A stretch of 63,841 bases of DNA, counting the filler, from Caldilineae bacterium (GTDB lineage: Bacteria; Chloroflexota; Anaerolineae; DTLA01): assembly GCA_037446815.1 (NCBI GenBank). It is 4 parts of 4 records of this genome, joined end to end, with 100 filler letters (N's around TTAATTAATTAA, not from the genome) between each part and the next. Parts side by side here need not be neighbours in the genome. Positions count along the whole stretch, not along the records: positions 17,616 to 34,780 come from JBBIHX010000053.1; 3 more parts are not named here. One strand, 5' to 3'. The translations under genes and the position numbers were made by a program. The notes under the pieces are model-generated. The model worked only from the letters and a program-made list of their open reading frames with translations, searched no databases and had not been told where the DNA came from. Below, in pieces: positions 237 to 20,633 of this stretch (the first letter of the stretch is position 1; each line of letters opens with the position of its first letter).

Positions 237-260
237 TTCCGTTCGGCTTGCGATAGGTGC

Positions 261-1640: not shown

Positions 1641-1646
1641 GCCGGA

Positions 1647-1675
1647 GCAGGGGCAGGCACGAGGTCTGCCCCTGC
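1647..1675. terminator. REP-like hairpin / bidirectional terminator between convergent genes
   Basis: GCAGGGGCAGGC-acgag-GTCTGCCCCTGC. Confidence 0.6.
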
Positions 1676-1679
1676 GATC

Positions 1680-4514: not shown

Positions 4515-4539
4515 CGCATTGTCCTCCCGTGATGAACGT

Positions 4540-5409
4540 TTAGGTTTGCCGTTTCGGCTCCTGGACGAGCACCAGGGCGATGCCGAGCAGGGTGATTGCC
4601 GCGCCCAGTGCCGCGTTCCAGGTCGGCGCTTCGCCCAGGAACAGCCAGCCCAGCAGGATGCCGCCGGTAACCTCCTGCGTGGCGACAAGGTTTACATAGG
4701 TCGCATGGGTCTTGCGCAGGGCGGCGTTGTACAAGGTGTGGCCCAGCCCCAGCGGGAACACGCCCAGCGCCAGCACCGACAGCGCCTGGCGCGTTCCCCA
4801 TCCCGCGCCTGCCAGCGGGGCCGCTACCGGCGTGAGCCAGAGGGCCGCCGCGCCATAGGTGGCGAGCGCGTAGGTGAAGAGCGGATACCGGTCGCGCTGG
4901 GAGCGGCCCGCCACGGAGTAGAACCCGAACGCAATCGCCGAGCCGAGCGCCAACGCGTCGCCGATGAGCATGTCGCGGGTGAGGTGCGGTTCAAATCCGG
5001 CCAGGATGGCGACGCCCGCCACGGCGACCGCGACGCCGACATACTTCCAGCGGGCGATGGACTCGCGCAGAAACAGCGCCGAGAACAGGGTTACGAAGAT
5101 GGGCGCGGTGTAGGTGAGGGTCAGGGAGTGGGCGATGGTCGTGTAACTCAGCGACGCGATGTAGCAGAAGAAGTGCGCGGCGGTAATCCCGCCGAACAGC
5201 AGGAAGCGCGGGATGTCGCCGCGGCCCAGGCGCACGCGCTGGCGGGATGCAAGCGCCAGGACGGCGACGGTGGCGGTGGCGATGGCAAGCCGCGCCCAGG
5301 TGATGACGTAGGGCGAGAGGGGCGCGGCCCATCGGATGAAGACGGGCGACGTGGAGAACATCAGCGTGCCAAGCGCCACGTACAGGAGTCCTTTGCGGCG
5401 TTCGGACAT
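4540..5409 (-). CDS. EamA/DMT family transporter
   Basis: about 10 hydrophobic segments in two EamA-like halves (YTAPIFVTLFSALFLRE; GWLFLGE). Confidence 0.88.
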   Translation of the reverse strand: MSERRKGLLYVALGTLMFSTSPVFIRWAAPLSPYVITWARLAIATATVAVLALASRQRVRLGRGDIPRFLLFGGITAAHFFCYIASLSYTTIAHSLTLTYTAPIFVTLFSALFLRESIARWKYVGVAVAVAGVAILAGFEPHLTRDMLIGDALALGSAIAFGFYSVAGRSQRDRYPLFTYALATYGAAALWLTPVAAPLAGAGWGTRQALSVLALGVFPLGLGHTLYNAALRKTHATYVNLVATQEVTGGILLGWLFLGEAPTWNAALGAAITLLGIALVLVQEPKRQT

Positions 5410-5412
5410 ACG

Positions 5413-6663
5413 CTACTCTCCTCCCAGGTGCGACGCCCGCGGCGGGATGACCTTGCGCAGATAGGTTACCGGCGTCGGCTGCCCGTTCAGCGGGACGGTT
5501 GCCTCGCGGTGGGGCACAAACCCCAGGCGCTCGTACAGGGCGCGCACCCGCACGGCGTCGCTGCGCACGCCGATTTCCAGCACGGGGATGTCGCGCGCCG
5601 AAGCCTCGTCGGTGAGCGCCTGGATGAGCGCCGTGCCCAACCCGCGCCCCTGAAGCGAAGGCTCCACCACCAGGTTGGCAATCTCCGCAACCTCGCCCAT
5701 GATGCTCAACTCGCCGTTGGCCACGGCTTCGCCCAGTTCCACCACCAGGTGTACCCTGCGGCCCCTCGCGGCCTCGGCCAGGCTCCACGCCAGATGGCGC
5801 GCGGTGTCGTCGGGAGCCGAGCCGGAAAAGCAGTTCCGCGCCAGGGCGTCGGCGTCGTCGGGCGCGGCGCGGCGGATGCGCCAGGCAGGCCCGGGGTTCA
5901 GGTGGAACGCCAGGTGATACTCCAGTTGCCCGGCCACGAAGGCCACATCGTGCCCGCCTGGGCGCTGTCGGTATGCGGCCAGGATGCCCTGAGCGCGGCA
6001 GGCGTCCACGAATCGCCGCCCCAGGGGGCGATCCCACGCATCGTCGCCCGTGGTTACCAGCAGGCGCATCTCTCCCAGCGCGGCGACGTGCGCCGCGGGG
6101 TTGTGGGCGCGCCACACGGCCGGGTCATCCCCCAGGAGTGCGCGCAGGCCCGCGTAATCGGGGCACAGCGGCTCAATGTCCAGCGGCCCAAGGATGGACG
6201 AGGCGCTGGCGAACAGGTCGGGGTGGCGCGCGGCCAGGTACATGGCGCCGAACCCGCCCATGCTGAAGCCGCAGATGGCTCGGTTTTCCCGTCTGCCGCC
6301 GACCCCGTGCCGCGACTCCACGGCGCTCATGACGGCGAGGAAGGCGCGCTCGCCCTGGCTTCGCCGATTCGCCGGGCTGTCCAGATACCACCCCTTGCCC
6401 CCGTTCACGAAGGCCAAGCACACGCGCGCGGCCATTGGCAGCAGGCGAGCCATGGGCAGGTCCGTGAAGAACGAGGCCGGCGAGTGGCCCGCGCCGTGGA
6501 GGAAGTAGATGACCGGCCGCGGCGTGCTGTCCTGCGCGTTCTGGGGCGGGCAGACGAGGACCGGCTCGCGGCGCGTGGGCGCGACCCGAACCCACTCCCA
6601 GCGGCAGCGCGGCGGGAGTGCTACCTGGGGCGCGGGATTTCTTCGCAGTGGGAGACGCAGCAT
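5413..6663 (-). CDS. alpha/beta-hydrolase esterase fused to C-terminal GNAT acetyltransferase
   Basis: YFLHGAG, GFSMGG nucleophile elbow, GGHD; then VEPSLQGRGLGTALI and LYERLGF GNAT motifs; start uncertain (6663 ATG or 6675 GTG); ORF-track extension to 6876 runs into repeats. Confidence 0.75.
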   Translation of the reverse strand: MLRLPLRRNPAPQVALPPRCRWEWVRVAPTRREPVLVCPPQNAQDSTPRPVIYFLHGAGHSPASFFTDLPMARLLPMAARVCLAFVNGGKGWYLDSPANRRSQGERAFLAVMSAVESRHGVGGRRENRAICGFSMGGFGAMYLAARHPDLFASASSILGPLDIEPLCPDYAGLRALLGDDPAVWRAHNPAAHVAALGEMRLLVTTGDDAWDRPLGRRFVDACRAQGILAAYRQRPGGHDVAFVAGQLEYHLAFHLNPGPAWRIRRAAPDDADALARNCFSGSAPDDTARHLAWSLAEAARGRRVHLVVELGEAVANGELSIMGEVAEIANLVVEPSLQGRGLGTALIQALTDEASARDIPVLEIGVRSDAVRVRALYERLGFVPHREATVPLNGQPTPVTYLRKVIPPRASHLGGE

Positions 6664-6724
6664 GTTCGGACTCACCGGTCGGCGTAAGGTGGAGGGAAGT
6701 ATAGCAGGATGGGCGCGGGAGGGC

Positions 6725-7190
6725 AAAGTGGGGCTGAAGCCGCCGCGGTGGAGGTGTGGAGCAAATTGGCAATTTGCTCCACGGGGCAGGTGTGGGCGTG
6801 GCGGCGCGGGGCTGAAGCCGCCGCGGTGAGTGGGTGGGCTTCCCCCTGGCCGCGTGCGAGGGAGCGTGGCCCTCACCCCAGCCCTCTCCCGGTGGGCGAG
6901 GGAGCGTGGCCCTCACCCCAGCCCTCTCCCGGTGGGCGAGGGAGCGGGGCCGCGCGGGGCTGAAGCCGCCGCGCTGAGGGTGGTTGCAGGGCGGGTCCTT
7001 GGGGAAAGGCGGCTCGGTCTTGTCACCCTGAGCATGTAGGGGCGACCGATCGGTCGCCCCTACTACTATCCGCGGATAACGCGGATTGCACGAATAGGGG
7101 TTGCGAGATTCTTCGCGGCTGCGCCGCTCAGAATGATGGGCGGTCGGCGCCCTGGCGGTGGCGGCTACCGGCGGACTTTGAACCGAATCC
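6725..7190. repeat. mosaic cluster of REP-like palindromes
   Basis: 3x GGGCTGAAGCCGCCGCG; 2 tandem CCTCACCCCAGCCCTCTCCCGGTGGGCGAGGGAG; perfect 28-bp palindrome GTAGGGGCGACCGATCGGTCGCCCCTAC (7036-7063); GAGATTCTTCG...CTCAGAATGA unit. Confidence 0.85.
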
Positions 7191-7267
7191 GAGGGCGGGG
7201 CGAGGTTGGTGATTGGCGGCAACCGTGGTATAATAGCCCAAGCCAACTCCCACAGAGAGTCCATACG

Positions 7268-8017
7268 ATGGCAATCGCAGCGGCGCTACTCGGATACTGC
7301 GTCGGCGTGTTCTTGAACCTCTGCGCCGACTTCCTGCCCGCCGAGCCACGGCGGTCTCCGTTCCAGTTTCCCCGATGCGCGGCATGTGGCGCGCCCCGAC
7401 GACCCTTGAGCCTGGCAGGGGTGATTGCGGATTGGGCTGGCTGGAGCCGCTGCCCGCAGTGCGGGGCAGGGCGAGGGCTGCGCGCGCCCGTCGTGGAACT
7501 GGCAACTGCCGCCATCTTCGGGTTCTTGGCTTGGCGCTACGGGTTTGGGGTGCAGTTCGTTTTCCTGGCGCTCTACTTCGCGGTGCTCATCCTGGTTACC
7601 GTTACAGACCTGGAGCATCGCCTCATCCTGGATGTCGTTACCTACCCGGCCATGGCGCTGGCGCTGGTAGGGAGTTTCTTCATGCCCAACATGACGCCGG
7701 CAAAGGCGCTCATCGGCGGCGCCATCGGCTTCGGGCTGTTCTTCGTGCTGGCCGTGATCGCCCGCGGCGGGCTGGGCGGCGGCGACGTTACGCTCATGGG
7801 GTTCGTGGGCCTAGCGACGGGGTTCCCGGTGGTTATCGTGGCAATCCTGGCGGGTATCCTGCTGGGCGGGCTGGGCGCCGGGGCGATGCTGGCGCTCCGT
7901 CGCGTTGGCCGCAAGAGCACCATCGCCTACGGCCCGTATCTGGTGCTGGGGGCTGCGTTCGCGCTTCTGTACGGGCGCGAGTTCATCCTGTGGTATCTAG
8001 CGCCGTATGCGCGCTAG
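7268..8017 (+). CDS. prepilin peptidase (A24 family)
   Basis: two CxxC (CAAC, CPQC), TDLEHRLI and GGGDV aspartate motifs, IAYGPYL; TGGTATAAT extended -10 upstream. Confidence 0.88.
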   Translation: MAIAAALLGYCVGVFLNLCADFLPAEPRRSPFQFPRCAACGAPRRPLSLAGVIADWAGWSRCPQCGAGRGLRAPVVELATAAIFGFLAWRYGFGVQFVFLALYFAVLILVTVTDLEHRLILDVVTYPAMALALVGSFFMPNMTPAKALIGGAIGFGLFFVLAVIARGGLGGGDVTLMGFVGLATGFPVVIVAILAGILLGGLGAGAMLALRRVGRKSTIAYGPYLVLGAAFALLYGREFILWYLAPYAR

Positions 8018-8032
8018 GCGCGAGGGGGAGAC

Positions 8033-10015
8033 ATGTTTGATACACTGTTGGCGACACTGCGCAAGGAGATCTCGGGGGCCGCGGCCAGGAACTACGTGGG
8101 CGAGATCATTCGCTATCACCGCATCCAGGCCAGCCCGGGGTTTCGCGCGGCGGCGGAGTACGTGGCCGAGACGCTCCGCAGCGCGGGGCTAGAGACGCGC
8201 ATCCTGTCGTATCCCGCCGACGGGCAGACGACGTTCTGGTCCATGCGCACGTTCCACGAGTGGGATTGCCAGGCGGCCACGCTGTACCTGCTGGGCGAAG
8301 ACGGCCAGCCGACCGAGAAACTGGCCGACTATCGGGACGAGAAGGTGTCGGTCATCCAGCGCAGCGCGCCGGCGGACGGGGAGTTTGAGGTGGTTGCGCT
8401 GGAAGGCGGCGACGAGCGGGCGGACTACGAGGGGCTAGACCTGGAGGGCAAGGTGGTGCTCACCCAGGCCCCCATTGAGCGCGTCGTGGATTTGGCGATT
8501 CGGGAGCGCGGCGCGGCGGGGGTGCTGTTTGACGGGATGATGAAAGCGCCCCCTGTGCGCGAACGGATAGACCTGCCCGATGCCCGCCAATACACGTCGT
8601 TCTGGTCGCGTGGGGGCGAGCCGCTGACGGCCTTCGGCTTCGTCCTCACGCCGCGCCAGGGCGATGCGTTGCGGGAGCGGTGCAGGAAAGCCCGCGCTGA
8701 GGGCAAGCCCCCCGTGCGCGTGCGCGCAAAGGTGGAGTCGGCTCTGTACGTGGGGCAGATGGAGGTCGTGGAGGCGGTTATCCGCGGCGAAACGGCGGAA
8801 GAGGTCGTCCTGGTTGCCCACCTGTGCCACCCGCAGCCGTCGGCGAACGATAACGCGTCGGGCGCGGGCGCGCTGATGGAAGTGGCGCGGGCCCTGGCCG
8901 CGTGCGTGGCGAGCGGTCGGCTTCCCAAGCCCAGGCGCACGCTGCGATTCCTGTGGGTGCCGGAGATGTCGGGCACGTATGCGTACCTGGCGTCGCGCGA
9001 GCAGGATATTCCCCTCATGATCGCGGGGCTGAACCTGGACATGGTGGGCGAGGATCAGGACAAGTGCGGGAGTTCGCTCCTGGTGGAGTCGCCGCCCGCG
9101 TCCATGAGCAGTTTTGCCCCCGTGCTGGCGCGACACGTGCGCGATCTACTGCTGGGCGGCGCGAAAAGCCACGCGGGACAGGGCGAATTCCCGCTGTATC
9201 GCTACGCCGATACGCCTTTCTCCGGCGGGAGCGATCACTACATCCTGTCCGATCCGACGGTGGGCGTGCCCACGCCGATGATTATCCAGTGGCCCGACCG
9301 CTACTACCATACCAGCGAGGACACCCTGGACAAGGTCAGCCCGCAGATGATGGGGACGGTGGCGGCGCTCGCGGCGACCTATGGGTACTGGGTGGCCAAC
9401 GCCGGGCCGAAGGAGGCCGAATGGCTTGCCCACGAGATGACGGCTCGGTTCAAGGCGGAATTCCTGCGGCGCGCCCAGGCGGCGATGGCAGTAGGGAGCG
9501 GTAAGGGCAGCGCGGCGAAACTGCGGCGGGAAGTGGCATTTGCCACGGCGCGCCAGGCTGAGGCGCTGGCGACGGTGCGACGCCTGGCTGCGATTGACAT
9601 AACCGCATTCCAGGCCGAGTGCGCGGCCTTTGCCGATGGCGAAGTGGCGCGCGCGTTGGCGTTCCTGGGCGAGGAGGCGGGAGAGCTGCCCGCTCCGCCG
9701 TCGGGCGAGTGGGAGGAGAAGGCCGCCCGCATGGTTCCGGTGCGGCGGTTCCGAGGGCCATTGTCCGTCGGCAATCTGCTAACCAAGCCCGCCGACCGAG
9801 AGGCGTTTTACCGATTCCGAAAGGAGCACCCTCAATTCGGGTGGACCACGCCCGATCTGGCGGTGTACTGGGCCGACGGCGAGCGAACCGTGTCCGACAT
9901 CGCCGATTTGTTGGAAGCCGAGACCGGGCAACGACCAACGCAGGCGCTGGTTGAGTACTTTGAACTCCTCGCGCGGGTCGGCGGCGTGGAACTGCACCAG
10001 CGAGGAGCGGCATAG
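8033..10015 (+). CDS. DUF4910-like M28 family metallo-aminopeptidase
   Basis: AHLCHP, ANDNASG, WVPE, NLDMVG, GSDH, YHTSEDT; C-terminal winged-helix-like segment. Confidence 0.8.
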   Translation: MFDTLLATLRKEISGAAARNYVGEIIRYHRIQASPGFRAAAEYVAETLRSAGLETRILSYPADGQTTFWSMRTFHEWDCQAATLYLLGEDGQPTEKLADYRDEKVSVIQRSAPADGEFEVVALEGGDERADYEGLDLEGKVVLTQAPIERVVDLAIRERGAAGVLFDGMMKAPPVRERIDLPDARQYTSFWSRGGEPLTAFGFVLTPRQGDALRERCRKARAEGKPPVRVRAKVESALYVGQMEVVEAVIRGETAEEVVLVAHLCHPQPSANDNASGAGALMEVARALAACVASGRLPKPRRTLRFLWVPEMSGTYAYLASREQDIPLMIAGLNLDMVGEDQDKCGSSLLVESPPASMSSFAPVLARHVRDLLLGGAKSHAGQGEFPLYRYADTPFSGGSDHYILSDPTVGVPTPMIIQWPDRYYHTSEDTLDKVSPQMMGTVAALAATYGYWVANAGPKEAEWLAHEMTARFKAEFLRRAQAAMAVGSGKGSAAKLRREVAFATARQAEALATVRRLAAIDITAFQAECAAFADGEVARALAFLGEEAGELPAPPSGEWEEKAARMVPVRRFRGPLSVGNLLTKPADREAFYRFRKEHPQFGWTTPDLAVYWADGERTVSDIADLLEAETGQRPTQALVEYFELLARVGGVELHQRGAA

Positions 10016-10044
10016 AGGCACCGATTACCACGGGGAGGTGTTGC

Positions 10045-11826
10045 ATGAAGAAACTGTTGTCGGGCAATGAGGCCATCGCGCGCGGCGCGTGGGAGTATGG
10101 GGTGGCGGTGGCATCGGCCTATCCGGGAACGCCGAGCACCGAGATTCTGGAGGAGTTTGCGCGCTACCCCAACGTGTACGCGGAGTGGGCCACCAACGAG
10201 AAGGTGGCGCTGGATGTAGCCATCGGCGCGGCGTATGCGGGGCGGCGGGCCATGTCCACCATGAAGCACGTGGGGCTGAACGTGGCGGCGGATGCCTTTT
10301 TCTACGCATCCATGACGGGCATAGAGGGCGGGCTGGTCATCGTGTCCGCCGACGACCCGGCCATGCACAGTTCGCAGAACGAGCAGGATAACCGCAACTT
10401 CGGGAAGTTCGCCCGCGTGCCGGTGGTGGAGCCGGTGGACAGCCAGGAGGCGAAGGACCTGGTGGGGGCGGCGCTGGACATCAGCGAGCAGTTTGACACG
10501 CCGGTCCTGTTGCGCATTACCACGCGAATCGCCCATTCCAGCACGCCGGTGGAACTGGGCGAGCGCCGGGAAGGGCCACCCCCGCTGCCGACCTACCCGC
10601 GCAAGTTTGAGAAGTACGTCATGCTGCCGGTGAACGCCCGCAAGCGGCATCCCGTCATTGAGGAGCGCATTCGCAAACTCACGGAGTTCGCGGAGACGTT
10701 CCCGTTCAACCGCATTGAGTGGGGCGACCGGGACCTGGGCATCGTTACGTGCGGCGTGGCGTACCAGTACGCCAAGGAAATCTTCCCAACGGCGTCGGTG
10801 CTCAAGTTGGGGATGACCTATCCGATTCCGCCCAGGATGGTCCGGGAGTTCGTGGGAGGCGTGAAGCGGGCCATCGTGCTGGAGGAACTGGACCCGTTCG
10901 TGGAGAACGAGATCAAGTTGCTGGGCCTGTGGGTGGAAGGTAAGTCCATCTTCTCCGGCATCGGCGAAATGGATCCGCGCCTCGTGCGCGAGCAGGCCAT
11001 CGCTGCGGGCCTTCTGCCCGAGTCGGCGCGCAAGACCTACGTCGTGCCGGACGTGGGGAGCCTGCCCGGCCGGCCGCCGGTGCTGTGCCCGGGGTGCCCG
11101 CACCGCGGATTCTACGTCATCACGCGCAAACTGAAACTGCCCATCAACGGCGACATCGGCTGCTACACGCTGGGCGCGCTGCCCCCGCTGAACTCCACCG
11201 ACACGTGCGGGTGCATGGGAGCGAGCATCGGCGTGGCGCACGGGGCGGATAAGGCCGGCTCGCCGGAGCGCAACATCGCCGTGCTGGGCGATTCCACGTT
11301 CTTCCACACGGGCATGCCGGCGCTGCTGAACGTCGCCTACAACAAGGGCAAGACGATTACCGTGGTGCTGGACAACCGGGTAACAGCCATGACGGGCCAT
11401 CAGGACAACCCAGGCACGGGCCGCACGCTGCAGGGCCAGGAGACGAAGGAGATTGAGTTTGAGCCGCTGCTGCGGGCGCTGGGGATGGATCACGTGCATA
11501 CGGTGAACGCCTTCGACCTGCGCGAGGTGGAGCGGGCGCTGCGGGAGGCGGTGAAGCGAGACGAGGCGTCGGCGCTGGTGGTTCGGGGCGAGTGTGCGCT
11601 GCTGCCCGAGGCGCGCAAGAAGTACGTGCCGCTCCGTGTGGACGAGGAGCGGTGCAACGGATGCGGGCTGTGCTTCCGGGTCGGGTGCCCCGCCATCGTC
11701 AAGCGGCCGGACGGAAAGGCGTCCATTGACCCGCTGCTGTGCACGGGGTGCGAGGTGTGCGCCCAGGTGTGCGGACGAAAGGCGATTCTGTTCCGGGCGC
11801 AGGTTCTGGAGCAGTCGGAGGGTTGA
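10045..11826 (+). CDS. iorA: indolepyruvate:ferredoxin oxidoreductase alpha subunit
   Basis: GNEAIARGA, YPGTPSTE, LCPGCPHR, GDIGCY, GDSTFFH and two C-terminal 4Fe-4S motifs. Confidence 0.95.
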   Translation: MKKLLSGNEAIARGAWEYGVAVASAYPGTPSTEILEEFARYPNVYAEWATNEKVALDVAIGAAYAGRRAMSTMKHVGLNVAADAFFYASMTGIEGGLVIVSADDPAMHSSQNEQDNRNFGKFARVPVVEPVDSQEAKDLVGAALDISEQFDTPVLLRITTRIAHSSTPVELGERREGPPPLPTYPRKFEKYVMLPVNARKRHPVIEERIRKLTEFAETFPFNRIEWGDRDLGIVTCGVAYQYAKEIFPTASVLKLGMTYPIPPRMVREFVGGVKRAIVLEELDPFVENEIKLLGLWVEGKSIFSGIGEMDPRLVREQAIAAGLLPESARKTYVVPDVGSLPGRPPVLCPGCPHRGFYVITRKLKLPINGDIGCYTLGALPPLNSTDTCGCMGASIGVAHGADKAGSPERNIAVLGDSTFFHTGMPALLNVAYNKGKTITVVLDNRVTAMTGHQDNPGTGRTLQGQETKEIEFEPLLRALGMDHVHTVNAFDLREVERALREAVKRDEASALVVRGECALLPEARKKYVPLRVDEERCNGCGLCFRVGCPAIVKRPDGKASIDPLLCTGCEVCAQVCGRKAILFRAQVLEQSEG

Positions 11827-11989
11827 CCTCACTCTCTGAACCCCAACCTCACCCCCCTCAATCCCCGAAGCCGAGGCCGGGGTGAGGTGCGACGCCAGCG
11901 GAGATGGGGAGGCCGAAGGCGGGGTGTGGCGCGCGCAGGGGCGGGAAATCGCAGACAGTTGCAGGTGATCCGGTCAGGGAGGATGGATT

Positions 11990-12574
11990 ATGAAGAGCAT
12001 GGATTTCATCGTCGTCGGCGTGGGCGGGCAGGGAACGCTGCTCGCCAGCGACGTGATCGCGCAGGTTGGCCTCGGGGCAGGCCTGGAAGCCAAGAAGTCG
12101 GAGGTGCATGGCATGGCCCAGCGCGGCGGCAGCGTCATCAGCCACGTGCGTTGGGGCGAGAAGGTGTATTCTCCCCTCATCGGCAAGGGCGAGGCCGATT
12201 TCCTTCTGGCGTTTGAGAAACTAGAGGCGTTGCGCCACGTGGACTGGCTGAAGCCCGGCGGCGTGGCCCTGGTGAACGACCAGGCCATCCCGCCCGTGGC
12301 GGTGAGTTCGGGCGGGGCCGAGTATCCGTCCGACGAGCGGTTTCTGGCCGCGTTCAGGGCGGTTACGGACAGGCTGTACCTTATCCCCAGCCTTGCGGTC
12401 GCGCAAGAAGTGGGGAGCGCGCGCGTGAACAACGTGGTGATGCTCGGCGCGCTGTCGGCGCTGCTGGACGTGGACGAGGCGGTGTGGCGTGCGGCGATAG
12501 AAGAGCGCGTCCCGCCGAAGTACGTGGAGTTGAACCTGCGCGCGTTTGAGCGGGGGCGCGGGCTGGTGAAATAG
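11990..12574 (+). CDS. iorB: indolepyruvate oxidoreductase beta subunit
   Basis: GVGGQG, SEVHGMAQRGGSV; follows iorA. Confidence 0.95.
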   Translation: MKSMDFIVVGVGGQGTLLASDVIAQVGLGAGLEAKKSEVHGMAQRGGSVISHVRWGEKVYSPLIGKGEADFLLAFEKLEALRHVDWLKPGGVALVNDQAIPPVAVSSGGAEYPSDERFLAAFRAVTDRLYLIPSLAVAQEVGSARVNNVVMLGALSALLDVDEAVWRAAIEERVPPKYVELNLRAFERGRGLVK

Positions 12575-12654
12575 CCCCCTGCGGAGAGGATCGCGCCCGA
12601 AGGACACGCGACGTCCCATGCCGCGATGGGCCTTCGGGCGCTGTGCTTTGCCGT

Positions 12655-13008
12655 TCAGTCCTCGCGGACGGTGTACTCGCCCTCAACAACCTCGCCTTGG
12701 GGGGCGGGGCTTGTGTACTGGCCTCGGATGCGCGCCAGGTGCTCGGCGGCGATATCTCTCGGACACAGGGAGATGAAGGCCTGGATGCCCAGGGCCAGCA
12801 GCGTCAGGTCGTCCACCTGCCCTAGGACGGGTGTCAGGTCGGGCAGGAGATCCAGCGGCACGAAGAGATAGGCGAGCACCGCGGCGGGGATGACGATCTT
12901 GGGCCAGAGGGGTACGCGCGGGTCGCGGAACAGCCGCCACGCCAGCCGAAGCCGATTCCATAGGCTTGCCCAGAAGCCGATGGGATTCTTGGGTGCTTTG
13001 TCGGTCAT
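12655..13008 (-). CDS. YkvA/DUF1232 family membrane protein
   Basis: DPRVPLWPK...YLFVPLDLLPDLTPVLGQVDD; start MTDKAP after GAGGTG. Confidence 0.85.
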   Translation of the reverse strand: MTDKAPKNPIGFWASLWNRLRLAWRLFRDPRVPLWPKIVIPAAVLAYLFVPLDLLPDLTPVLGQVDDLTLLALGIQAFISLCPRDIAAEHLARIRGQYTSPAPQGEVVEGEYTVRED

Positions 13009-13149
13009 AGGGAACACCTCGCTGCGCACAGTATAGCCGCTTTCGGCGCGGGGCGCAATATCGGCGGCGTGGCGGGATGGGGAGAGAGCCTGCCACGCCT
13101 CACGCCGCATGGGCAGCACCATCCTCAGCACAGCGATTGGTCTCGGTGC

Positions 13150-13600
13150 ACGAGATTCTTCGGCGCTTTGCACTTCAGAATGGGCCCCCACGCACTTTGG
13201 CGCCGAATCCCAACGCCCCGCCCTGCAACCCCGCCCTCATCGCGGCGGCTTCAGCCCCGCGCGGCCCCACCCCCAGAACTGTCATTCCCTGAGCGGCGCG
13301 GCCGCGAAGAATCTTGCCCCTCACCCCAGCCCTCTCCCGGCGGGCGAGGGAGCGTGGCCCTCACCCCAGCCCNNNNNNNNNNNNNNNNNNNNNNNNNNNN
13401 NNNNNNNNNNNNNNNNNNNNNNNNNNNNNNNNNNNNNNNNNNNNNNNNNNNNNNNNNNNNNNNNNNNNNNNNGGCGGGCGAGGGCGCGTGGCCCTCACCC
13501 CAGCCCTCTCCCGGCGGGCGAGGGCGCATCGCCTTCGGCTTGGCATGACAGAGCAAGCGGCAGATCACCTGCCGACCAACACAAGTTGGAACCGCGTCCA
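13150..13600. repeat. REP-like mosaic spanning a 100-N gap (13373-13472)
   Basis: same repeat families as 6725-7190; tandem CCTCACCCCAGCCCTCTCCC units on both sides of the gap. Confidence 0.85.
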
Positions 13601-13683
13601 ACCGGCACGTGGCTTGGCCTGGGCGGCAGGGGCGGGTATAATAGGCCTACCCATTACGCCGAGAGGTAGGCGACAGAGCACGG

Positions 13684-15372
13684 ATGCGAAAACTGGCGGA
13701 ATGTTTACTGGACTACTCCGTGGTTCGCTTGCGGGCGCTGGCGGCGGCCCGCGGCATAGACCTGCCCACCAACAACCGCGTGCAGGCAGCCCACTTCCTG
13801 GCCGAACAGATGCTGCGCCCCGAGTCGGTGGCCGAGGCGCTGGAAATCCTTAGCCCGCAGGAGCGCGAGGCGCTGGAGACCGTCCAGGCGGCAGGGGGCA
13901 AGGTGCGCGCCGATCCCTTCATGCGCCGATTCGGCGAGATACGCCTCATGGGCGACGGCAAACTGATGCTGGAACAGCCATGGCTCTCGCCTGCGAGCAT
14001 CACCGAACGCCTGCGGTTCCTGGGGTTCCTGTTCAAGGCGTTCGCCGACTATGCGGATGAGCGGGTGGCGTTCCTGTTCATTCCGACGGACGTGTTGCCG
14101 CTGCTGCCCCCGCCGCGCGCGCAGGCGGGCCTGCCGTTCACGCCGCGCCCGGCGCCCGCCCAAGTCTGGCAGGCGCGGGATACGGCGTCATTGGACTTGT
14201 GCACGTTTCTCGCCTACTTGCAGAACCAGCAGCCGAGGTACGCGCGCGGGCGTGGGGTGTCGCCCCAGGACGAATCGGCGTGGCGGCGGCGCTGGGCGTG
14301 GAAGCCGATGTCGCCCCCGCCGTTCGCGGGGCATGTCTCCTTGCGCTCGCAGTGGCTGCTGCGCGTCGCGGGGCGGCTCAAACTGGTGCGCAAGGTGGGG
14401 GAGCGCGTGAAACCGGCATCGGACGCGGCGCGCGCGTGGCTGAGCGCCCCCACGGCGACGCGGCAGGGCCAGATGTACCGCGCGTGGGTTGGCGACGACG
14501 GCTGGGACGAACTGCGGCGGATTCCCGAAATCCGCTGCGAGGGGAGCGGGTGGAGCCACGATCCCGTGCGCACCCGCCAGCGGCTTCTGGACTTGCTGAA
14601 AGCGTGCGAGGCGGGCGCGTGGTACTCGCTCCCGCAAGTGGCGCGCACCATTCGCGACTACGCGCCCGATTTCCAGCGCACCGGCGGCGACTACGAGACG
14701 TGGTATATCCGCGACGTGAAGACAGGCCAGTATCTCACGGGGTTTGAGCATTGGGATGATGTGGAGGGCCGACTGATTGCGCAGGTTGTGGCGGGGCCGC
14801 TGCACTACCTGGGGGCCGCCGATTTGGGCTGGGATGTGGAGGGCGCCGAGTTGTGCTTTGCCCTGACCGAATGGGGCTGGGCATGGCTGCACGGCAGCGA
14901 GACCGAGCCCAGCGCGACCGGCTCGCCCCTTCGCGTGGGGGATGACGGGCGAGTGCATTGGCCCGCCGACGGCAATCTGCTGCACCGCTTCCAGTTGGAG
15001 CGATTCGCCACGTGGGAGAGTGACAACGGCGGCACGGTCTATCGCATCACGCCCGCGTCGGTGGCGCGCATCCTGAGCCAGGGCGTGGACGCGGAGGCCG
15101 TGGCGCGCTTTCTCTCGCAGGCGAGTGAGGGGCAGGCTCCCGACAGCGTGTTGGCGCGCATTCGCGAGTGGGCGGCCCGCCGCGGACGGGCACGCTTGAC
15201 CCGCGCCGTCCTGCTGGAGGCCGACTCGCCCGAAGTGTTGGCGGCGATTCGCGCCGACGTGGAGATCGGGCCGCTCCTGGGCGAGGCGGTCGGCCCCACA
15301 TGCGTGCGCGTGCCCGAGGCTCACTGGCGACGGGTTGAGGCGCTTCTGCGGGGCAAGGGGTTCATCGCCTAG
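13684..15372 (+). CDS. helicase-associated domain protein (XPB/Ssl2-associated Helicase_C_3-like)
   Basis: C-terminal LERFA...YRITPASVARILSQG...FLSQAS...PDSVLARIREW pattern; no Walker motifs seen. Confidence 0.7.
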   Translation: MRKLAECLLDYSVVRLRALAAARGIDLPTNNRVQAAHFLAEQMLRPESVAEALEILSPQEREALETVQAAGGKVRADPFMRRFGEIRLMGDGKLMLEQPWLSPASITERLRFLGFLFKAFADYADERVAFLFIPTDVLPLLPPPRAQAGLPFTPRPAPAQVWQARDTASLDLCTFLAYLQNQQPRYARGRGVSPQDESAWRRRWAWKPMSPPPFAGHVSLRSQWLLRVAGRLKLVRKVGERVKPASDAARAWLSAPTATRQGQMYRAWVGDDGWDELRRIPEIRCEGSGWSHDPVRTRQRLLDLLKACEAGAWYSLPQVARTIRDYAPDFQRTGGDYETWYIRDVKTGQYLTGFEHWDDVEGRLIAQVVAGPLHYLGAADLGWDVEGAELCFALTEWGWAWLHGSETEPSATGSPLRVGDDGRVHWPADGNLLHRFQLERFATWESDNGGTVYRITPASVARILSQGVDAEAVARFLSQASEGQAPDSVLARIREWAARRGRARLTRAVLLEADSPEVLAAIRADVEIGPLLGEAVGPTCVRVPEAHWRRVEALLRGKGFIA

Positions 15373-15393
15373 CCCTGCCCCGCCCGACGCCTG

Positions 15394-17214
15394 CTATCCC
15401 CCCATGGCGTTGGGCATATAAAGGGCAAGCGAAAGGAGGGCGTCCGTGGCCGCGAAGATGGCGAAGGCGAACATGACCACTTTGCGCTCCGATCGGCGGA
15501 TGTAAGCCCGCATGGCGAGCAGGCCCAGGCCAAGCAGCAGCGCCGGAAAGCCCAGGAGCACCACCCATTCGTACCGAGGCGGCACGATGTCCAGAAACGG
15601 TGCGTACCACAGGAACGCCGGCAGCATGAACAATTTGGAGAACAGATAGAGCGCGATGGCCACAGCGAGGCCCACGCAGCCGGTGCGGGTGGTCAGGTCG
15701 GCGTCGGGGCGCGCCAGGTAGAAGACCACCAGCCAGGCGAAGGGCAAGAATAGCCAGATTACGAGCATCGGGAAGAAGGACAGGGCCGAGGCGGTGGTCC
15801 AGGTGCGGCCCAGGAGGAGGCCGAGCAAATCCTGTGTCGTGAGCCGATTCAGCGCCGAGCGGATTTCTGGCGCGGTGCTGGCGTAGAGCACCTCGTAGGT
15901 TCCAAAGCCCCCCACGCCAAGGCAGGCCAAGTGGAACGCCCCTGTGTCATCCACGGCAGCAGATGGTCGCATAGACCCCGACAGTGTCCGCACGGCGACT
16001 TCGTACCCCTTGACGCGGCCATCGTCCAGCGCAACGAAGGCGATTTGGATCTTCCCTGCCCGCCTAGGCATCGCCATATTGGTGGCGAGGAACAGTCCTG
16101 CTTCATCGCGTTGGCCCGGCACGGCGAACTGCATGTACACGTAGTCGGACGGGTTGCGCAGCACGACCGCATCACCGTCGCGCGATGCGAGGGGGTACAG
16201 GTGCGCGTAGTTGAAGGCGCCCGTCGCGGACTGATACTCCGGCTTGGCCAGGGCAGGCACGTAGATAGGCCCGCCGCTGCGGCGTTCGGGCTGGCCGATG
16301 GGGAAGGCTTGATATTGCGTCTCGGCGGTGCCTGGAGTCAGGCCGCCCCCGCGCTGCTCCAGCGACCAGATGACATACACCCAGCCGGATTCCAGCGCGA
16401 TCTCCGGCGGATGGAGCGCCTGGCCCGTGCCTACCGGGAACGACGCCATGACGGTGGGTTCGCTCACGCGAAGGGTGGCGGGGTCAAGGGTGGCGTAGAG
16501 AATCTTCTCCGCGCCCATGACCTGGCTGGCGTGCCACGTCAGGTGTACCACGCCCTCGCCATCCACGGCGGCGTAGGGATCGGCGCCCGCGATTCCCAGC
16601 GCGTGCGGGGCCACGATGACCTCGCCGGAGTCGGCCAGGCGGGCATGGAACAACTGCGCACTGCCTCCCGAGACGTCCGCCCAAAGCACGTCCAGCGCGC
16701 CATCCACGGCGCTAAAGGTGCAGTAGCCGGCTACGTCGCTGCCGTCGCCGGAAATGCGAACTGGGTTGGCCACGGGAGTGCCGTCGGTGGCGGCGCGAGT
16801 GTGGTATAGGCCAGGCCGCTGATCGCTCGGCGTCTCCAGCCACAGCAGGTGGAGCATACCCTGCTCGGTCAGGACCATCTGCGGACGGGTGGGGGCCCGC
16901 ATGGCGAAGGGCAGGGTAGTGGTGGTGATGTTAAGCTGCGAAGTGACGCGCGCGATCTGGAGACGCCAGCCGTGCTCGGTATTCGCAAGCCAGGCGATGA
17001 GGGCGGTGCCATCGGCGGCGTTCCAGACGATGCTGGGGCGATTGTTGATGTGCGACTTGCCGACGAGGATGCCGCGGCTCCAGTCGGGGCCGGCGAATTC
17101 GCTCTTCTCGGTGGGAGCCGCGCAGCCGCTCAAGAGCACGGCCACGGCGAGCAGCGCCAGCGCTACGGTCCAGGCACGCATGCCGCTGAATGGGAATCGG
17201 GTTACGGATCTCAT
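15394..17214 (-). CDS. hypothetical membrane protein (lipoprotein-like signal, beta-rich extracellular region, C-terminal TM helices)
   Basis: LLSGC lipobox-like motif; several hydrophobic C-terminal segments; GAGGT RBS. Confidence 0.7.
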   Translation of the reverse strand: MRSVTRFPFSGMRAWTVALALLAVAVLLSGCAAPTEKSEFAGPDWSRGILVGKSHINNRPSIVWNAADGTALIAWLANTEHGWRLQIARVTSQLNITTTTLPFAMRAPTRPQMVLTEQGMLHLLWLETPSDQRPGLYHTRAATDGTPVANPVRISGDGSDVAGYCTFSAVDGALDVLWADVSGGSAQLFHARLADSGEVIVAPHALGIAGADPYAAVDGEGVVHLTWHASQVMGAEKILYATLDPATLRVSEPTVMASFPVGTGQALHPPEIALESGWVYVIWSLEQRGGGLTPGTAETQYQAFPIGQPERRSGGPIYVPALAKPEYQSATGAFNYAHLYPLASRDGDAVVLRNPSDYVYMQFAVPGQRDEAGLFLATNMAMPRRAGKIQIAFVALDDGRVKGYEVAVRTLSGSMRPSAAVDDTGAFHLACLGVGGFGTYEVLYASTAPEIRSALNRLTTQDLLGLLLGRTWTTASALSFFPMLVIWLFLPFAWLVVFYLARPDADLTTRTGCVGLAVAIALYLFSKLFMLPAFLWYAPFLDIVPPRYEWVVLLGFPALLLGLGLLAMRAYIRRSERKVVMFAFAIFAATDALLSLALYMPNAMGG

Positions 17215-17315
17215 GTCTTACCTCTGAACAGAATGACGGCGTCCCACACGATGGCGGGCGCACGCGAGAATATACCACCGCGGGCGCTGGCAGGCAACTC
17301 GGCGCGTGCCACGAG

Positions 17316-17459
17316 TCGGTTCCAAACTGTGTTGGTGAAACGCAGACACACTCTCCTCGCGTGTCATTGCGAGCGAAGCGAAGCAATCGCACGCCCCGGG
17401 GATTGCTTCGGGCGCTCCGCGCCCTCGCAATGACAGCCACCAACAGACTCTGGAACCGA
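17316..17459. mobile_element. 144-bp MITE-like element, copy 1
   Basis: imperfect ~20-bp TIRs TCGGTTCCAAACTGTGTTGGT / ACCAACAGACTCTGGAACCGA enclosing a GTCATTGCGAG...CTCGCAATGAC hairpin. Confidence 0.7.
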
Positions 17460-17515
17460 ATCCGTGCGACAGGTCGGTCTCGCGTTGGCCCACGCGCTGC
17501 TCATGTGTCGCCGCG

Positions 17516-17615
17516 NNNNNNNNNNNNNNNNNNNNNNNNNNNNNNNNNNNNNNNNNNNNTTAATTAATTAANNNNNNNNNNNNNNNNNNNNNNNNNNNNN
17601 NNNNNNNNNNNNNNN
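17516..17615. other. artificial contig junction
   Basis: N44-TTAATTAATTAA-N44. Confidence 0.97.
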
Positions 17616-17616
17616 C

Positions 17617-17811
17617 ACTACGAATCTGGTCGTTCGCGTCGTTGCGCTCTACCAACAGCGCCCCGAAACTCCCCTGGCACAACTGGCGCGCGACCTGGGA
17701 GTTTCTCCATCCACCGCCTCCCGCGCCAGAATCCAGGCAATGCAACAGGGAATGCTCGTGAAAGTTTCCCGTAGCCGCTACACCCCAAACGGCCACCACA
17801 ATTCCGAGTGA
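17617..17811 (+). CDS. 5'-truncated CDS ending in an HTH/winged-helix domain (cargo of integrated element)
   Basis: open frame from contig edge: ...PLAQLARDLGVSPSTASRARIQAMQQGMLVKVSRSRY...; absent from ORF track. Confidence 0.7.
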   Translation, partial: TTNLVVRVVALYQQRPETPLAQLARDLGVSPSTASRARIQAMQQGMLVKVSRSRYTPNGHHNSE

Positions 17812-17826: not shown

Positions 17827-18051
17827 ATGGAGTTCGGCCTCATACCCCCAATGTTCGGAATGGGAATTGCGAACAGCTTGGCGGAAACACTCAAGAGCCA
17901 GCACGAGGCAACCGGCCAGGCCCTGGATCTGCTGCACCAGCCACTTCTCCAGGAGGCGATGCTGCCACCCCAGCCGGCCGAGGAGCCACAGAAGCCCTGC
18001 GCCAGCAAGGTCCCCGGTCCGCCTGGCACCATCAAAGACCACGGGGCCTAG
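17827..18051 (+). CDS. hypothetical 74-aa protein in integrated element
   Basis: strong RBS AAAGGAG; directly follows the HTH CDS. Confidence 0.6.
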   Translation: MEFGLIPPMFGMGIANSLAETLKSQHEATGQALDLLHQPLLQEAMLPPQPAEEPQKPCASKVPGPPGTIKDHGA

Positions 18052-18102
18052 CCGCTGGACACACATGCGGCTCAGGACGATTCGGGCTCCGGGCACAGGT
18101 TC

Positions 18103-18150
18103 TTGACTTTTGACACGACTTTGTGCTACAATGCACTTGAACAAACGTTC
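18103..18150 (+). promoter_or_regulatory. promoter with Gram-positive/Chloroflexi-type LexA (SOS) box
   Basis: TTGACT...TG-C-TACAAT (18124-18132) followed by GAAC-AAAC-GTTC (18139-18150). Confidence 0.65.
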
Positions 18151-18379
18151 CATGACTGCGGTCGTTTGCGTGCCCGACATTTCACGGGCAGCGACCGTCC
18201 TTTCGGCGAACTGATGGGAGTTGTGCCTTCGGCCCCCTAGGTCGCTTTCGTGCGACGACTCGCTCGCTCCGTACAACCGTGAGGCCAATCTGCTCGCAAG
18301 CATTCGGGAGACGCCCAGCATAGACATCACTCGCCCAGCGAGCGCGAAGTGAAACCCGACTGCCAAGGGAGACCTCACG

Positions 18380-18580
18380 ATGCCCAACGAGTCTGCTTGT
18401 ACGAGCGCCGATCATTCGCTTGAGGACCCAGGTGTTGACGAATTCTGCCACATCGTTGCCAACATCGTCCGGCGCCTGATCGCTTGTCATGTGCCCGACC
18501 AGATGGCAACTTCAAGCGAAAACCCAACATTCACGCCACCGACTAGCCCTGGGACACCGAGCCCAGGTCAAACGAGATAG
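18380..18580 (+). CDS. hypothetical 66-aa protein upstream of recombinase
   Basis: AAGGGAG RBS; amphipathic core DEFCHIVANIVRRL. Confidence 0.45.
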   Translation: MPNESACTSADHSLEDPGVDEFCHIVANIVRRLIACHVPDQMATSSENPTFTPPTSPGTPSPGQTR

Positions 18581-18631
18581 GTCTGTCCAGTTGCCGTCCC
18601 GCCGGCACCACATTGCAGAGGTGAACGCATC

Positions 18632-20128
18632 ATGACCACGGCCGCTCTCTACGCCAGGGTCTCTACAGAGGAGCAAACCGATGGCTACAGCCTGGAAGCA
18701 CAGCTTGTCGCCATGCGAGAACACGCAGCACGCCAGGGGTGGCAGGTCGTCGCCGAATTCGTTGATGCCGGCTACTCAGCCCGCACTGACAACCGTCCCC
18801 AGTTCAAAGCCATGATCGCCGAAGCCAAGGCCAGACGCTTTGACATCATCCTGGTTCACAAGTTTGACCGCTTCGCCCGCTCCCGCGAGCAATCTGTTAC
18901 CTACAAAGCCCTCCTGCGCAAACTGAACATCAGCGTTCAGTCTGTCTTGGAGCCCACCGACCCAGAGTCCCCTTCCTCCATCATCTTTGAAGGCATGCTG
19001 GAAGTTATGGCCGAATGGTACAGCGCCAACCTGTCCCAGGAAACCCAGAAAGGCAAGCGACAACGCGCTCACAATGGCTTGTACAACGGCACCCTCTGCT
19101 ACGGCTACCAGAAGGGAGAGGATGGTATCCCCATCCCCCATCCTTTTGAAGCCGAGGGCGTCCGCAGGGCTTTTGAAGCCTATGCCACAGGCACCTACAG
19201 CGACAAGGACATCGCTGATCTCCTCAATTCCCTCGGCCACAGAACCCGTTCCACCTGGGGTGTCCGTCCTTGGTCCAAGGATACCATCACCGCACTTCTC
19301 AAGAACCCCTTCTACCTGGGCTATACAAAGTACCACGATACCCTCCTGCCCGGCAAGCACCCGCCGATCATCTCACAGGAACTGTTCGCCAAGTGCCAGG
19401 AAGTCCGCAAACGCCGCACCCGCGCGCCCCGTTCCAACTGCAAGCATTTCCGAGTCTACATCCTCACCGGTCTGTTGCGATGCGTCTCCTGCGGTGGCCG
19501 CCTCACCGCTCAGTCCATTCGCGAGCATCGCTACTACCGAGACCGCGCCAGCCTCCGCGGCCAGACCTGCCACCAGCCCCAAACCGGGGTGCGCGCCGAT
19601 GAGGTGGAGGCCCAGCTGGATGCCGTCATCGCTCGCTTCAGTCTCCTTCCCTCCTGGCGCGAGCGCGTGCTGGACCTGATCTCCTCTCGCCATGAACGAG
19701 AGAAGCTCCAGCGCGAGCGTCAGCGCCTGGAGGAAAAACTGAGGCGACTGATCAAACAGTACCGAGAAGTGGAAATTGACGAGGAAGAGTATCGTCGCGA
19801 ACGGGACGCGACCCGCAAGAAGCTGGATGCCCTTGTCGTGCCTGCGGAGACCGAAGTTCTGGCTGCCGGCGCCTACCTGGAAGACCTGGCCCAGATCTGG
19901 GCTACCGCCACTGCGGAGGAAAAACGCAGCATGGCGCTCCTCATCTTTGATACCATTTACTACGACCTGGCCGCCAAACAAATCGCCGCCCTGAAACCCA
20001 AGGCGGCGTTCATTCCCGTATTTCGCCAATCTCCATCCTTCGTGGAGACCGACGACGGCCTGTTTAGCATTGGCGGAAGCGACGGGATTCGAACCCGCGA
20101 TCTCCTGCTTGACAGGCAGGTATGCTAG
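18632..20128 (+). CDS. large serine recombinase (integrase)
   Basis: YARVSTEEQ catalytic Ser, RPQF, HKFDRFAR, recombinase domain (LKNPFYLG, HPPIISQELF), LLRCVSCG Zn ribbon, coiled coil. Confidence 0.93.
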   Translation: MTTAALYARVSTEEQTDGYSLEAQLVAMREHAARQGWQVVAEFVDAGYSARTDNRPQFKAMIAEAKARRFDIILVHKFDRFARSREQSVTYKALLRKLNISVQSVLEPTDPESPSSIIFEGMLEVMAEWYSANLSQETQKGKRQRAHNGLYNGTLCYGYQKGEDGIPIPHPFEAEGVRRAFEAYATGTYSDKDIADLLNSLGHRTRSTWGVRPWSKDTITALLKNPFYLGYTKYHDTLLPGKHPPIISQELFAKCQEVRKRRTRAPRSNCKHFRVYILTGLLRCVSCGGRLTAQSIREHRYYRDRASLRGQTCHQPQTGVRADEVEAQLDAVIARFSLLPSWRERVLDLISSRHEREKLQRERQRLEEKLRRLIKQYREVEIDEEEYRRERDATRKKLDALVVPAETEVLAAGAYLEDLAQIWATATAEEKRSMALLIFDTIYYDLAAKQIAALKPKAAFIPVFRQSPSFVETDDGLFSIGGSDGIRTRDLLLDRQVC

Positions 20129-20147
20129 GCCGCTGCACCACGCCTCC
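20071..20147 (-). tRNA. tRNA-Asp(GTC), CCA encoded
   Basis: GGAGGCG/CGCTTCC acceptor stem, CCTGC-CTGTCAA-GCAGG anticodon arm, GGTTCGAATCC T-arm, 3' GCCA. Confidence 0.97.
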
Positions 20148-20165
20148 GCTTGATGTTGCGCCGAC

Positions 20166-20194
20166 ATCCTACCATAAAACCGCCCCCTTGTCAA
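20166..20194 (-). promoter_or_regulatory. tRNA-Asp promoter
   Basis: TTGACA-17-TAGGAT with TG extension on minus strand. Confidence 0.75.
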
Positions 20195-20211
20195 AATCAG
20201 CCATCGCGCTC

Positions 20212-20493
20212 CTAAAACACCCCAAACCACATCGCAATACCCATCACCACAAACAGCGCCGCCGCCACCTTGTTCAACACCTCCGCCGGCACAAACTGCG
20301 AGATCAACTGCCCCGCAAACGCCCCGATCAACGTAACCACCACCAACGCCAGCGCCGCCCCCAAAAACACCATCCACGGCTTCCCCGTCTTGCACGTCAT
20401 GGAAATCACCGCCAACTGCGTCTTGTCCCCAAGTTCCGCCAACAGCAGCAGCCCAAAAGTCCCCGCAAACACCTTCCAGTCCATCGTTGTCAT
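20212..20493 (-). CDS. TMEM165/GDT1 (UPF0016) family single-repeat protein, likely Mn2+ export
   Basis: AELGDKTQLA signature; three hydrophobic segments; downstream of Mn riboswitch. Confidence 0.9.
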   Translation of the reverse strand: MTTMDWKVFAGTFGLLLLAELGDKTQLAVISMTCKTGKPWMVFLGAALALVVVTLIGAFAGQLISQFVPAEVLNKVAAALFVVMGIAMWFGVF

Positions 20494-20513
20494 CTCCTGT
20501 TATGTAAACTCAA

Positions 20514-20628
20514 CAAAAAGACCCTTGCCACACGGCAAAGGTCTCGCTCGTTGGCCCACGCCAACCGGCGGAACCAGGCCCAGGGCCGGCATGTTGATCC
20601 CGCCGCATGGGAGGCTACTCCCCTTTTT
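20514..20628 (-). promoter_or_regulatory. yybP-ykoY manganese riboswitch with overlapping terminator
   Basis: AAAGGGGAGTAGC ... ATCAACAT ... GCGAGACCTTT; terminator AGACCTTTGCC-GTGT-GGCAAGGGTCTTTTT; promoter TTGACG-17-CATAAT at 20638-20666. Confidence 0.88.
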
Positions 20629-20633
20629 GACGC

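Follow-up and report, generated by a model that had tools for sequence, protein, structure and literature searches.

A conserved non-coding leader between a putatively LexA-controlled promoter and a microprotein–serine recombinase gene pair at the tRNA-Asp end of a Chloroflexota genomic island

A non-coding leader of ~240 nt lies ahead of the gene for a large serine recombinase (LSR) in the genome of a Caldilineae bacterium (GCA_037446815.1). It was studied in a window of 63,841 nt, by which we mean the whole stretch of DNA analysed, made up of concatenated contigs of this metagenome-assembled genome (MAG); the contig that carries the leader begins at 17616, 0.5 kb from the leader itself. With middling confidence, we take the leader to be the 5' untranslated region (UTR) of an SOS-inducible operon for excision and integration at the tRNA-Asp end of a genomic island, an operon that encodes a microprotein of 66 amino acids, which would be a recombination directionality factor (RDF), together with the LSR.

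Relatives of the LSR are numerous: of the candidates scored, 460 proteins reach E<=0.001, and loci were drawn from viral, genome and metagenome collections. DNA homologues of the leader are found at three of these loci only, L091, L092 and L093; L091 and L092 are 99.5% identical to each other across 3.6 kb, and the set together with the window amounts to three lineages, whose LSRs share 86-87% protein identity. Further copies were sought without success: a search with nhmmer over 167 loci found only L091-L093, and a covariance model (R1), run over 88 sources and the window's own genome, only the 4 known copies. Leader DNA was detected in 0/60 relatives and in 0/4 of the order's other genomes; a search of 400 genomes from the class gave just two chance-level matches of 22-25 nt, and two pattern scans of viral contigs gave 0 matches. 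L093 and L092 become homologous exactly at the promoter and remain so through the tRNA gene into the host flank, their upstream cargo being unrelated; the conserved unit therefore consists of promoter, leader, small open reading frame (ORF) and LSR gene.

Conservation within this unit is distributed unevenly. In pairwise comparisons among the three lineages, to which all identities in this paragraph refer, the near-neutral third codon positions of the LSR gene are 54-61% identical and flanking intergenic stretches 28-51%, and the values for the LSR gene as a whole are 78-81%. The promoter stands at 65-70% and the 18 nt past the -10 hexamer at 89-94%. Within the leader, the regions of two hairpins, P1 (18154-18200; 53-62%) and P2 (18201-18257; 51-60%), diverge at a near-neutral rate, and a 3' block on the plus strand (18258..18379) reaches 77-80%. 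The small ORF is 66-72% identical in its first half and 42-43% in its second, and the tRNA-Asp gene is 100% identical in L092 and L093. The block is non-coding: its 36 variable positions are spread 14/11/11 over the three phases, with no 3-base periodicity. Six-frame translations gave no frame open across all lineages; an ORF of 43 aa on the plus strand has a stop in L093, and one of 102 aa on the minus strand has a stop in L092/L091. Given an identity above the neutral level in non-coding DNA, the sequence of the block must therefore be under selection; the evidence that it acts at the RNA level is weak.

Transcription is predicted to start at ~18139, from a sigma-70-type promoter with a TG extension (18103..18132, plus strand), whose TTGACT-18-TACAAT scores 10/12 matches in a promoter scan of 2.5 kb that returned 2 sites where 0.5 were expected. 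Both hexamers, -35 and -10, are kept in L091-L093, so in 4/4 sequences. The palindrome GAACAAACGTTC (18139..18150), a candidate LexA (SOS) operator, is likewise unchanged in 4/4 sequences; it starts 7 nt past the -10 hexamer, at the predicted +1, and the GAAC-N4-GTTC at 18139-18150 has the overlap with the core promoter or +1 that characterizes a Cheo-type LexA operator. According to an excerpt of PMC4234289, GAACN4GTTC is the SOS box of Bacillus subtilis, and the likeness to the Cheo-type SOS box that the same excerpt gives for Bacillus and Clostridium extends to three points: the palindrome is the same, it overlaps the promoter, and it precedes lexA in this genome.

Across the genome, GAACN4GTTC occurs at 45 sites against ~32 expected from base composition. 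AT-flanked copies stand directly upstream of one lexA gene (two boxes) and upstream of a second, adjacent lexA (one box), and both lexA products carry LexA_DNA_bind and Peptidase_S24 domains. The adjacent paralogs (G000 contig C110:3947-5410, locus L183) are 221 and 214 aa long, with the three boxes between and before them. Another AT-flanked copy lies on contig C88, ahead of a gene pair, RecA-like first and IMS-domain second, which is the arrangement of the imuA-imuB SOS cassette, and the same 12-mer as GAACAAACGTTC recurs at two other genome sites, C88:24 and C137:3875. GAACN4GTTC is also said to be the motif of Dehalococcoides LexA. The flanks of the window box, CTTGAAC...GTTCCAT, match the AT-rich local consensus TAGAAC...GTTCTA only in part. 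Since the invariant palindrome matches the boxes before the lexA genes and before the recA-like/Y-polymerase-like pair, we read the promoter as LexA-repressed, and it is probably SOS-controlled.

The first gene of the operon, the 66-aa ORF (18380..18580, plus strand; ribosome-binding site AAGGGAG; core DPGVDEFCHIVANIVRRLI), belongs to a family of microproteins. Its N-terminal half is conserved, and the indels in the alignment with its homologues preserve the frame. With a profile of five sequences we detected nine further small ORFs (29-65 aa, with start sites placed by us), each on the same strand as, and directly upstream of, an LSR gene; those LSRs are ~35-45% identical to the window LSR. 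A regular expression for the core matches in 13/152 of the loci with >150 nt of sequence ahead of the LSR, in each case 86-207 nt upstream of its start, and the 782 kb read in six frames contain a single match elsewhere; the expression was built from its own matches, and only this positional specificity counts. In a profile search of 1.84 billion representative proteins, 45 were found at E<=0.001, all but one of 31-115 aa. Pfam gave nothing better than E 0.2 for the family.

A model of the complex between microprotein and LSR scored 0.82, against 0.00 for the best control, with contact agreement of at least 93% between runs and a predicted local distance difference test (pLDDT) value of at least 64 for the partner. 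The score mark that we used is passed by 116/157 solved complexes and by 2/215 mismatched pairs, a calibration that is approximate here, and in that respect a point against our reading, because the model was run on our own alignments. The predicted interface sets microprotein residues 18-35 against LSR residues 338-359 and 402-438, just past the Zn ribbon (Pfam 277-329) and at the base of the LSR coiled coil, and on the LSR side also takes in 457-462. The microprotein is thus predicted to bind where directionality factors bind, and the 66-aa ORF is therefore a good RDF candidate. The initial annotation of this region had recognized neither its likely role nor the LexA-type box with which the leader opens. 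Two observations concern the same position at other loci. At L019 (2792-3004) the ORF just ahead of the LSR resembles by eye an excisionase-type helix-turn-helix (HTH) protein and not the microprotein. L028, L113 and L024 have a promoter-like TTGACA-N17-TAnnnT within the 3' end of the microprotein ORF, ~42 nt upstream of the LSR start, where it would supply the integrase with a promoter of its own.

The second gene encodes the LSR (18632..20128, plus strand; 498 aa), with Pfam Resolvase, Recombinase and Zn_ribbon_recom domains and a match to PHROG 95, integrase. Its frame enters the gene for tRNA-Asp(GTC), found by ARAGORN on the minus strand (20071..20147), by 57 nt, so that the last 19 codons are antisense in the tRNA. 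This tRNA gene is the right junction, or attachment site (att), of an integrated genomic island, and sister genomes diverge immediately left of its 3' end. What the initial annotation called an integrase operon consists of two genes only, the 66-aa ORF and the LSR gene; past the tRNA come host genes on the opposite strand, for a GDT1-family protein, a NUDIX protein and an M28 peptidase. The left part of the island lies beyond the contig break at 17616, so outside the available sequence, and a search of the window's own genome for the cargo of L091-L093 gave no match.

A tRNA-Asp gene is present at the same place in 15/22 related loci scanned, a tRNA-Arg gene in 1 and no tRNA gene in 6; the LSR frame reading into tRNA-Asp is recorded for the window (19999-20147) and for L011-L015, L020, L021, L091-L096, L102 and L105. 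The C-terminal LSR peptide encoded within the tRNA gene, with the consensus G-IRT-DL--DR--C, is kept even at 45-50% LSR identity. Sister genomes L190 (G002), L191 (G001) and L192 (G003) are without the module of promoter, leader, microprotein and LSR. G002 has a different LSR (30% identity over 282 aa) that reads into the same tRNA-Asp gene, and the junction in G001 is similar to that in G002; in G003 the flank differs, a terminator-like hairpin is present, and the site is possibly empty. Within this genus, the tRNA-Asp gene appears to be a hot spot for integration. Cargo beside the module varies: a gene at L093:1-1095 encodes an MrfA Zn-binding (MZB/DUF1998) domain (E 9e-12), a domain known from helicase-associated defence systems, and differs from the cargo of the window and of L092.

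All five sequence features listed in the initial annotation are present in the window where it had placed them, and homologues allow them to be compared. Hairpin P1 (18158..18198, plus strand) has an outer stem GCGGTCGT/GCGACCGT and an inner stem TGCCCG/CGGGCA; folded alone, it is more stable than shuffles, the z-scores for the window, L093 and L092 being -2.96, -2.57 and -1.62. In its outer stem, which is kept, one G-C pair has become A-U by a double change, two pairs alternate between G-U and G-C, switches that make sense on the plus strand only, and one pair is broken in L092/L091. When P1 was mutated randomly to the observed divergence, the stability of the real homologue was reached in 0.0-6.4% of trials over six comparisons. 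Judged by these sequences, P1 is a real conserved RNA hairpin. P2 (18201..18255, plus strand) is probably a second one: it comes from the consensus of the homologues, has 5 pairs altered on both sides across them, and is present in the minimum free energy (MFE) folds of L093 and L092. In the window itself it is weak, the shared consensus pairs being worth -2.3 kcal/mol only, and the random-mutation test was mixed (0.02-0.41).

The remaining helices, two of them long-range and held within the block, are conserved less clearly. GTCGC/GCGAC (18241-18256) is specific to the window, 2-3/5 of its pairs being broken in other sequences. For CGCTCGCT/AGCGAGCG, 7/8 pairs are kept, L092/L091 having a G-G mismatch at the centre, and no pair shows a double change. 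CCTCACG (18373-18379) does sit, as annotated, between AAGGGAG (18365-18371) and the ATG at 18380, and its pairing with CGTGAGG is kept via wobble pairs in 3/4 sequences, with a G-G mismatch in L093 and again no double changes; RNAalifold extends this helix across the start codon, joining 18257-18272 to 18380-18393, an extension that is strong in L093 and L092 and weak in the window. The block further contains an invariant 13-bp palindrome, CTCGC-N3-GCGAG (18331-18343). Taken together, the long-range helices of the leader are only partly kept among homologues.

In the mechanism that we propose, transcription would start at ~18139 from the strong promoter, and the LexA-type box covering +1 would keep the operon silent for as long as LexA is not inactivated by DNA damage. 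In the leader RNA, the 5' hairpin P1 and probably P2 would be followed by the constrained 3' block, which would extend into the start codon of the microprotein gene and its ribosome-binding site. The microprotein would bind the coiled-coil base of the recombinase, the docking place of directionality factors, and the leader may tune the amount of directionality factor relative to integrase post-transcriptionally, through mRNA stability and/or translation initiation. Since the microprotein is predicted to bind like directionality factors, such tuning of factor against integrase output would be the likeliest job of the leader. For the block, too, we favour a post-transcriptional role; an element with one promoter for both genes needs a means of making integrase without active RDF.

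A number of results weigh against this reading, beginning with the folding of the leader as a whole. As plus-strand RNA, the window leader (18140-18390) has a z-score of -0.50 against dinucleotide shuffles, 63/200 of which are as stable or more; the value for L093 is -0.52, and that for L092, -1.66, is marginal. Folding of the minus strand as RNA gave z +0.63, and DNA parameters gave -0.16 for the plus and +0.02 for the minus strand. The consensus structure accounts for no more than a third of the window MFE (-29.3 vs -89.7 kcal/mol). In its favour, 95.0% of its cells are paired, against 31.8-44.6% with the partners slid, and 7/70 consensus pairs are changed on both sides, against 0-3 when slid, a comparison that is generous in that the consensus structure was derived from the same four sequences. 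All 7 of these pairs lie in P1/P2; the 40 consensus pairs of the 3' block include 0 double changes and 8 pairs with broken cells, and with three independent lineages only, covariation is without statistical power.

The ribosome-binding site and AUG, for their part, are not less accessible than with a shuffled upstream leader. Their unpaired probability in the window is 0.305 against 0.452 +/- 0.106, with 11% of shuffles as low, and in L093 and L092 the share of shuffles as low is 73% and 57%. Masking of the ribosome-binding site as a selected feature finds no support from modelling in 3/3 lineages. The operator, too, is restricted in its distribution: among 10 more distant loci that bear the microprotein, a LexA-like box within 500 nt is found in 0/10, and none has a conserved promoter upstream of the microprotein gene. 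As the box is missing from these distant loci, LexA-type control would be specific to the close clade.

The initial annotation had described a highly structured non-coding leader, a description that stands for the non-coding nature of the region and for the stability of P1 but does not extend to the folding of the leader as a whole. The energy comparison with shuffled controls that it had proposed gave no excess stability for the whole leader, which is half of what it had named as counting against its own claim. That the leader matches no known RNA family was borne out, Rfam 15 giving no match in 18100-18640 at E<=10 and none in the leader in an 8-kb scan; for the L093 and L092 leaders Rfam returned only unrelated matches of 14-16 bits to different families.

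Of its three suggestions, that of a cis-regulatory RNA alone survives, and in part only: it has the position between promoter and ORF, the conservation of P1 (perhaps also of P2) and the constraint on the block in its favour, and has folding, covariation and the masking results against it. A specific form of that suggestion seems to us quite unlikely, namely a new, narrowly distributed riboregulator in which one SOS-controlled transcript carries a minimal directionality factor, with a helical core of ~16 residues, along with the integrase, and an RNA of P1, P2 and block sets, or switches in response to some signal, the translation of factor against that of integrase and so decides between integration and excision. 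The leader contains no terminator-like site or terminator/antiterminator pair, and no covarying core resembling a ligand pocket was found in it.

Control at the level of DNA, with the block and the inverted repeats acting as operators for protein regulators besides LexA, encoded by the element or the host, or for autoregulation by the LSR/microprotein pair, and the structure of the transcript irrelevant, is a serious rival, to which we assign a low probability. Operators of this kind would suit a block that is conserved in sequence without covariation and contains an invariant palindrome, and would also suit the HTH gene just upstream in the window and L092 and the unremarkable folding of the whole region. 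However, ~120 bp of unbroken constraint is long for operators; the block is just as conserved in L093, which is without the upstream HTH and 74-aa genes; and P1/P2 pairing that is kept under near-neutral drift, with G-U pairs on the plus strand, is a better fit to RNA. Binding by the LSR would moreover need similarity between the leader and the att/tRNA region, and a comparison with 20040-20200 (seed 8) gave no direct or inverted repeat of >=10 nt. The same result bears on the two remaining proposals of the initial annotation, an RNA partner or guide of the recombinase and a single-strand replication origin of the excised element, which we regard as highly improbable. To our knowledge, large serine recombinases need no RNA. 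All that would favour either proposal is the position beside the recombinase gene and the presence of hairpins; against them stand the z-scores near zero obtained with DNA parameters, the bracketing of the region by a promoter and a ribosome-binding site, and the lack of a rolling-circle Rep or relaxase gene in the 1-3 kb of available upstream flanks (Pfam, PHROG). In the part of PMC12286644 drawn on here, large serine recombinases use short DNA sites and protein cofactors only.

It could also be that the region is an ordinary long 5' UTR with a single stabilizing hairpin at its 5' end, in which function is confined to the LexA box, P1 and the translation initiation region, the rest being what is expected of sequence with 60% G+C, and conservation of the block is put down to minor constraints of unstated kind. 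We hold this to be unlikely. The near-zero z-scores of the whole leader agree with it, as do ribosome-binding site masking that is no stronger than with shuffled leaders, the mixed results for P2 and the block in the mutation test, the lack of an Rfam family and the confinement of the leader to 3 lineages, but it leaves selection on ~120 nt unexplained, the block being identical at 77-80% of positions against 28-51% for intergenic and 54-61% for neutral sequence.

Read as the 5' UTR of an SOS-inducible operon, the locus has its nearest counterpart in the ccrC1/ccrAB genes of SCCmec. According to an excerpt of PMC5397144, LexA represses the promoters of the ccr serine recombinase genes, so that there, as we propose here, the LSR gene of an island has a LexA/SOS box in its promoter, and DNA damage raises recombinase expression and excision. 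In the Caldilineae locus, unlike SCCmec, LexA binding is deduced from sequence and from co-occurrence of the box with SOS genes, the host lineage is quite different, the relatives of the window LSR being Chloroflexota MAGs, and the promoter precedes a conserved leader of 240 nt and a microprotein gene, which sets it apart from ccr as described in that excerpt (PMC5397144). The RDF of phiRv1 (PMC12286644, in excerpt) is likewise a small protein encoded by the element; here, contact with the junction of integrase DBD2 and coiled coil is predicted. The microprotein gene is located immediately upstream of int, whereas the excerpt of PMC12286644 stresses that RDF genes show no synteny.

The microprotein is without Pfam similarity, its conserved core comprises only ~16 residues and some members are 29-38 aa long, in which it differs from small helical RDFs. 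SPbeta SprB and TP901-1 Orf7 are reportedly such small helical RDFs of large serine integrases. The leader resembles the structured 5' leaders in Rfam in being a conserved, partly structured non-coding RNA that separates the promoter of a mobile-element operon from its first gene, and departs from them in having no consistent Rfam match at E<=10, no terminator/antiterminator and no core like a ligand pocket; an RNA motif near integrase genes, int-alpA, is said to be among the Rfam entries. Serine-recombinase islands of Dehalococcoides reportedly insert at the gene for transfer-messenger RNA (tmRNA), and would share with the present island a Chloroflexota host, a serine recombinase and the 3' end of a gene for a small structured RNA; unlike them, this one targets tRNA-Asp, and the last 57 nt of its LSR frame overlap the tRNA gene, which is on the opposite strand.

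The timing of excision, and the silencing of directionality factors during integration, are known for few model phages only. The locus offers a compact module from an uncultured lineage, with an SOS box, a leader, a microprotein predicted to bind the integrase and an LSR with a tRNA-Asp target, and its microprotein family of 45 representative clusters could extend the recombinase toolkit by integrase-cofactor pairs of very small size. A limited literature search turned up no described leader or riboswitch upstream of serine recombinase genes, and no Chloroflexi islands with a serine recombinase at tRNA-Asp. Neither the control of an LSR gene by LexA nor a small RDF is new in kind; the microprotein family and its fixed place before the integrase gene look new, and we consider them a more useful lead than the leader, which matters only if the conserved block acts at the RNA level.

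On the cargo side of the promoter, the available part of the island holds two plus-strand genes. An HTH-protein gene is represented by its 3' part (17617..17811), in a frame open from the contig start that cuts it at 17616; its Pfam HTH matches are weak and below the cut-off (E 2e-4 to 0.09), and it is homologous in L092/L091 and not in L093. It is followed by an ORF of 74 aa with a good ribosome-binding site (17827..18051), conserved in L092, to which no function is assigned and for which neither Pfam nor PHROG gave a match.

Elsewhere in the window, a match to the yybP-ykoY Mn2+ riboswitch on the minus strand (20431-20629) is below threshold, its 25.6 bits (E 5.6e-4) falling short of the gathering score of 45. 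It lies directly upstream of the gene for the GDT1-family cation transporter (20215-20493, minus strand; 93 aa; PF01169, E 4e-23), and is probably a divergent but real manganese riboswitch. The contig ahead of that of the leader spans 1-17515, and an N spacer around ttaattaattaa (17516-17615) marks the artificial join of the two, so that features on its two sides need not lie next to each other in the genome. At its end (17400-17465), the first of these contigs has a repeat of ~63 nt with >40 copies in the genome at 93-98% identity, often at contig ends, which looks like a dispersed element of the miniature inverted-repeat transposable element (MITE) or repetitive extragenic palindromic (REP) kind. 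The same contig carries a G+C-rich tandem repeat with a period of 40 nt (GCGAGGGAGCGTGGCCCTCACCCCAGCCCTCTCCCGGTGG-like) at two places 6.4 kb apart, 6816-6964 and 13304-13546.

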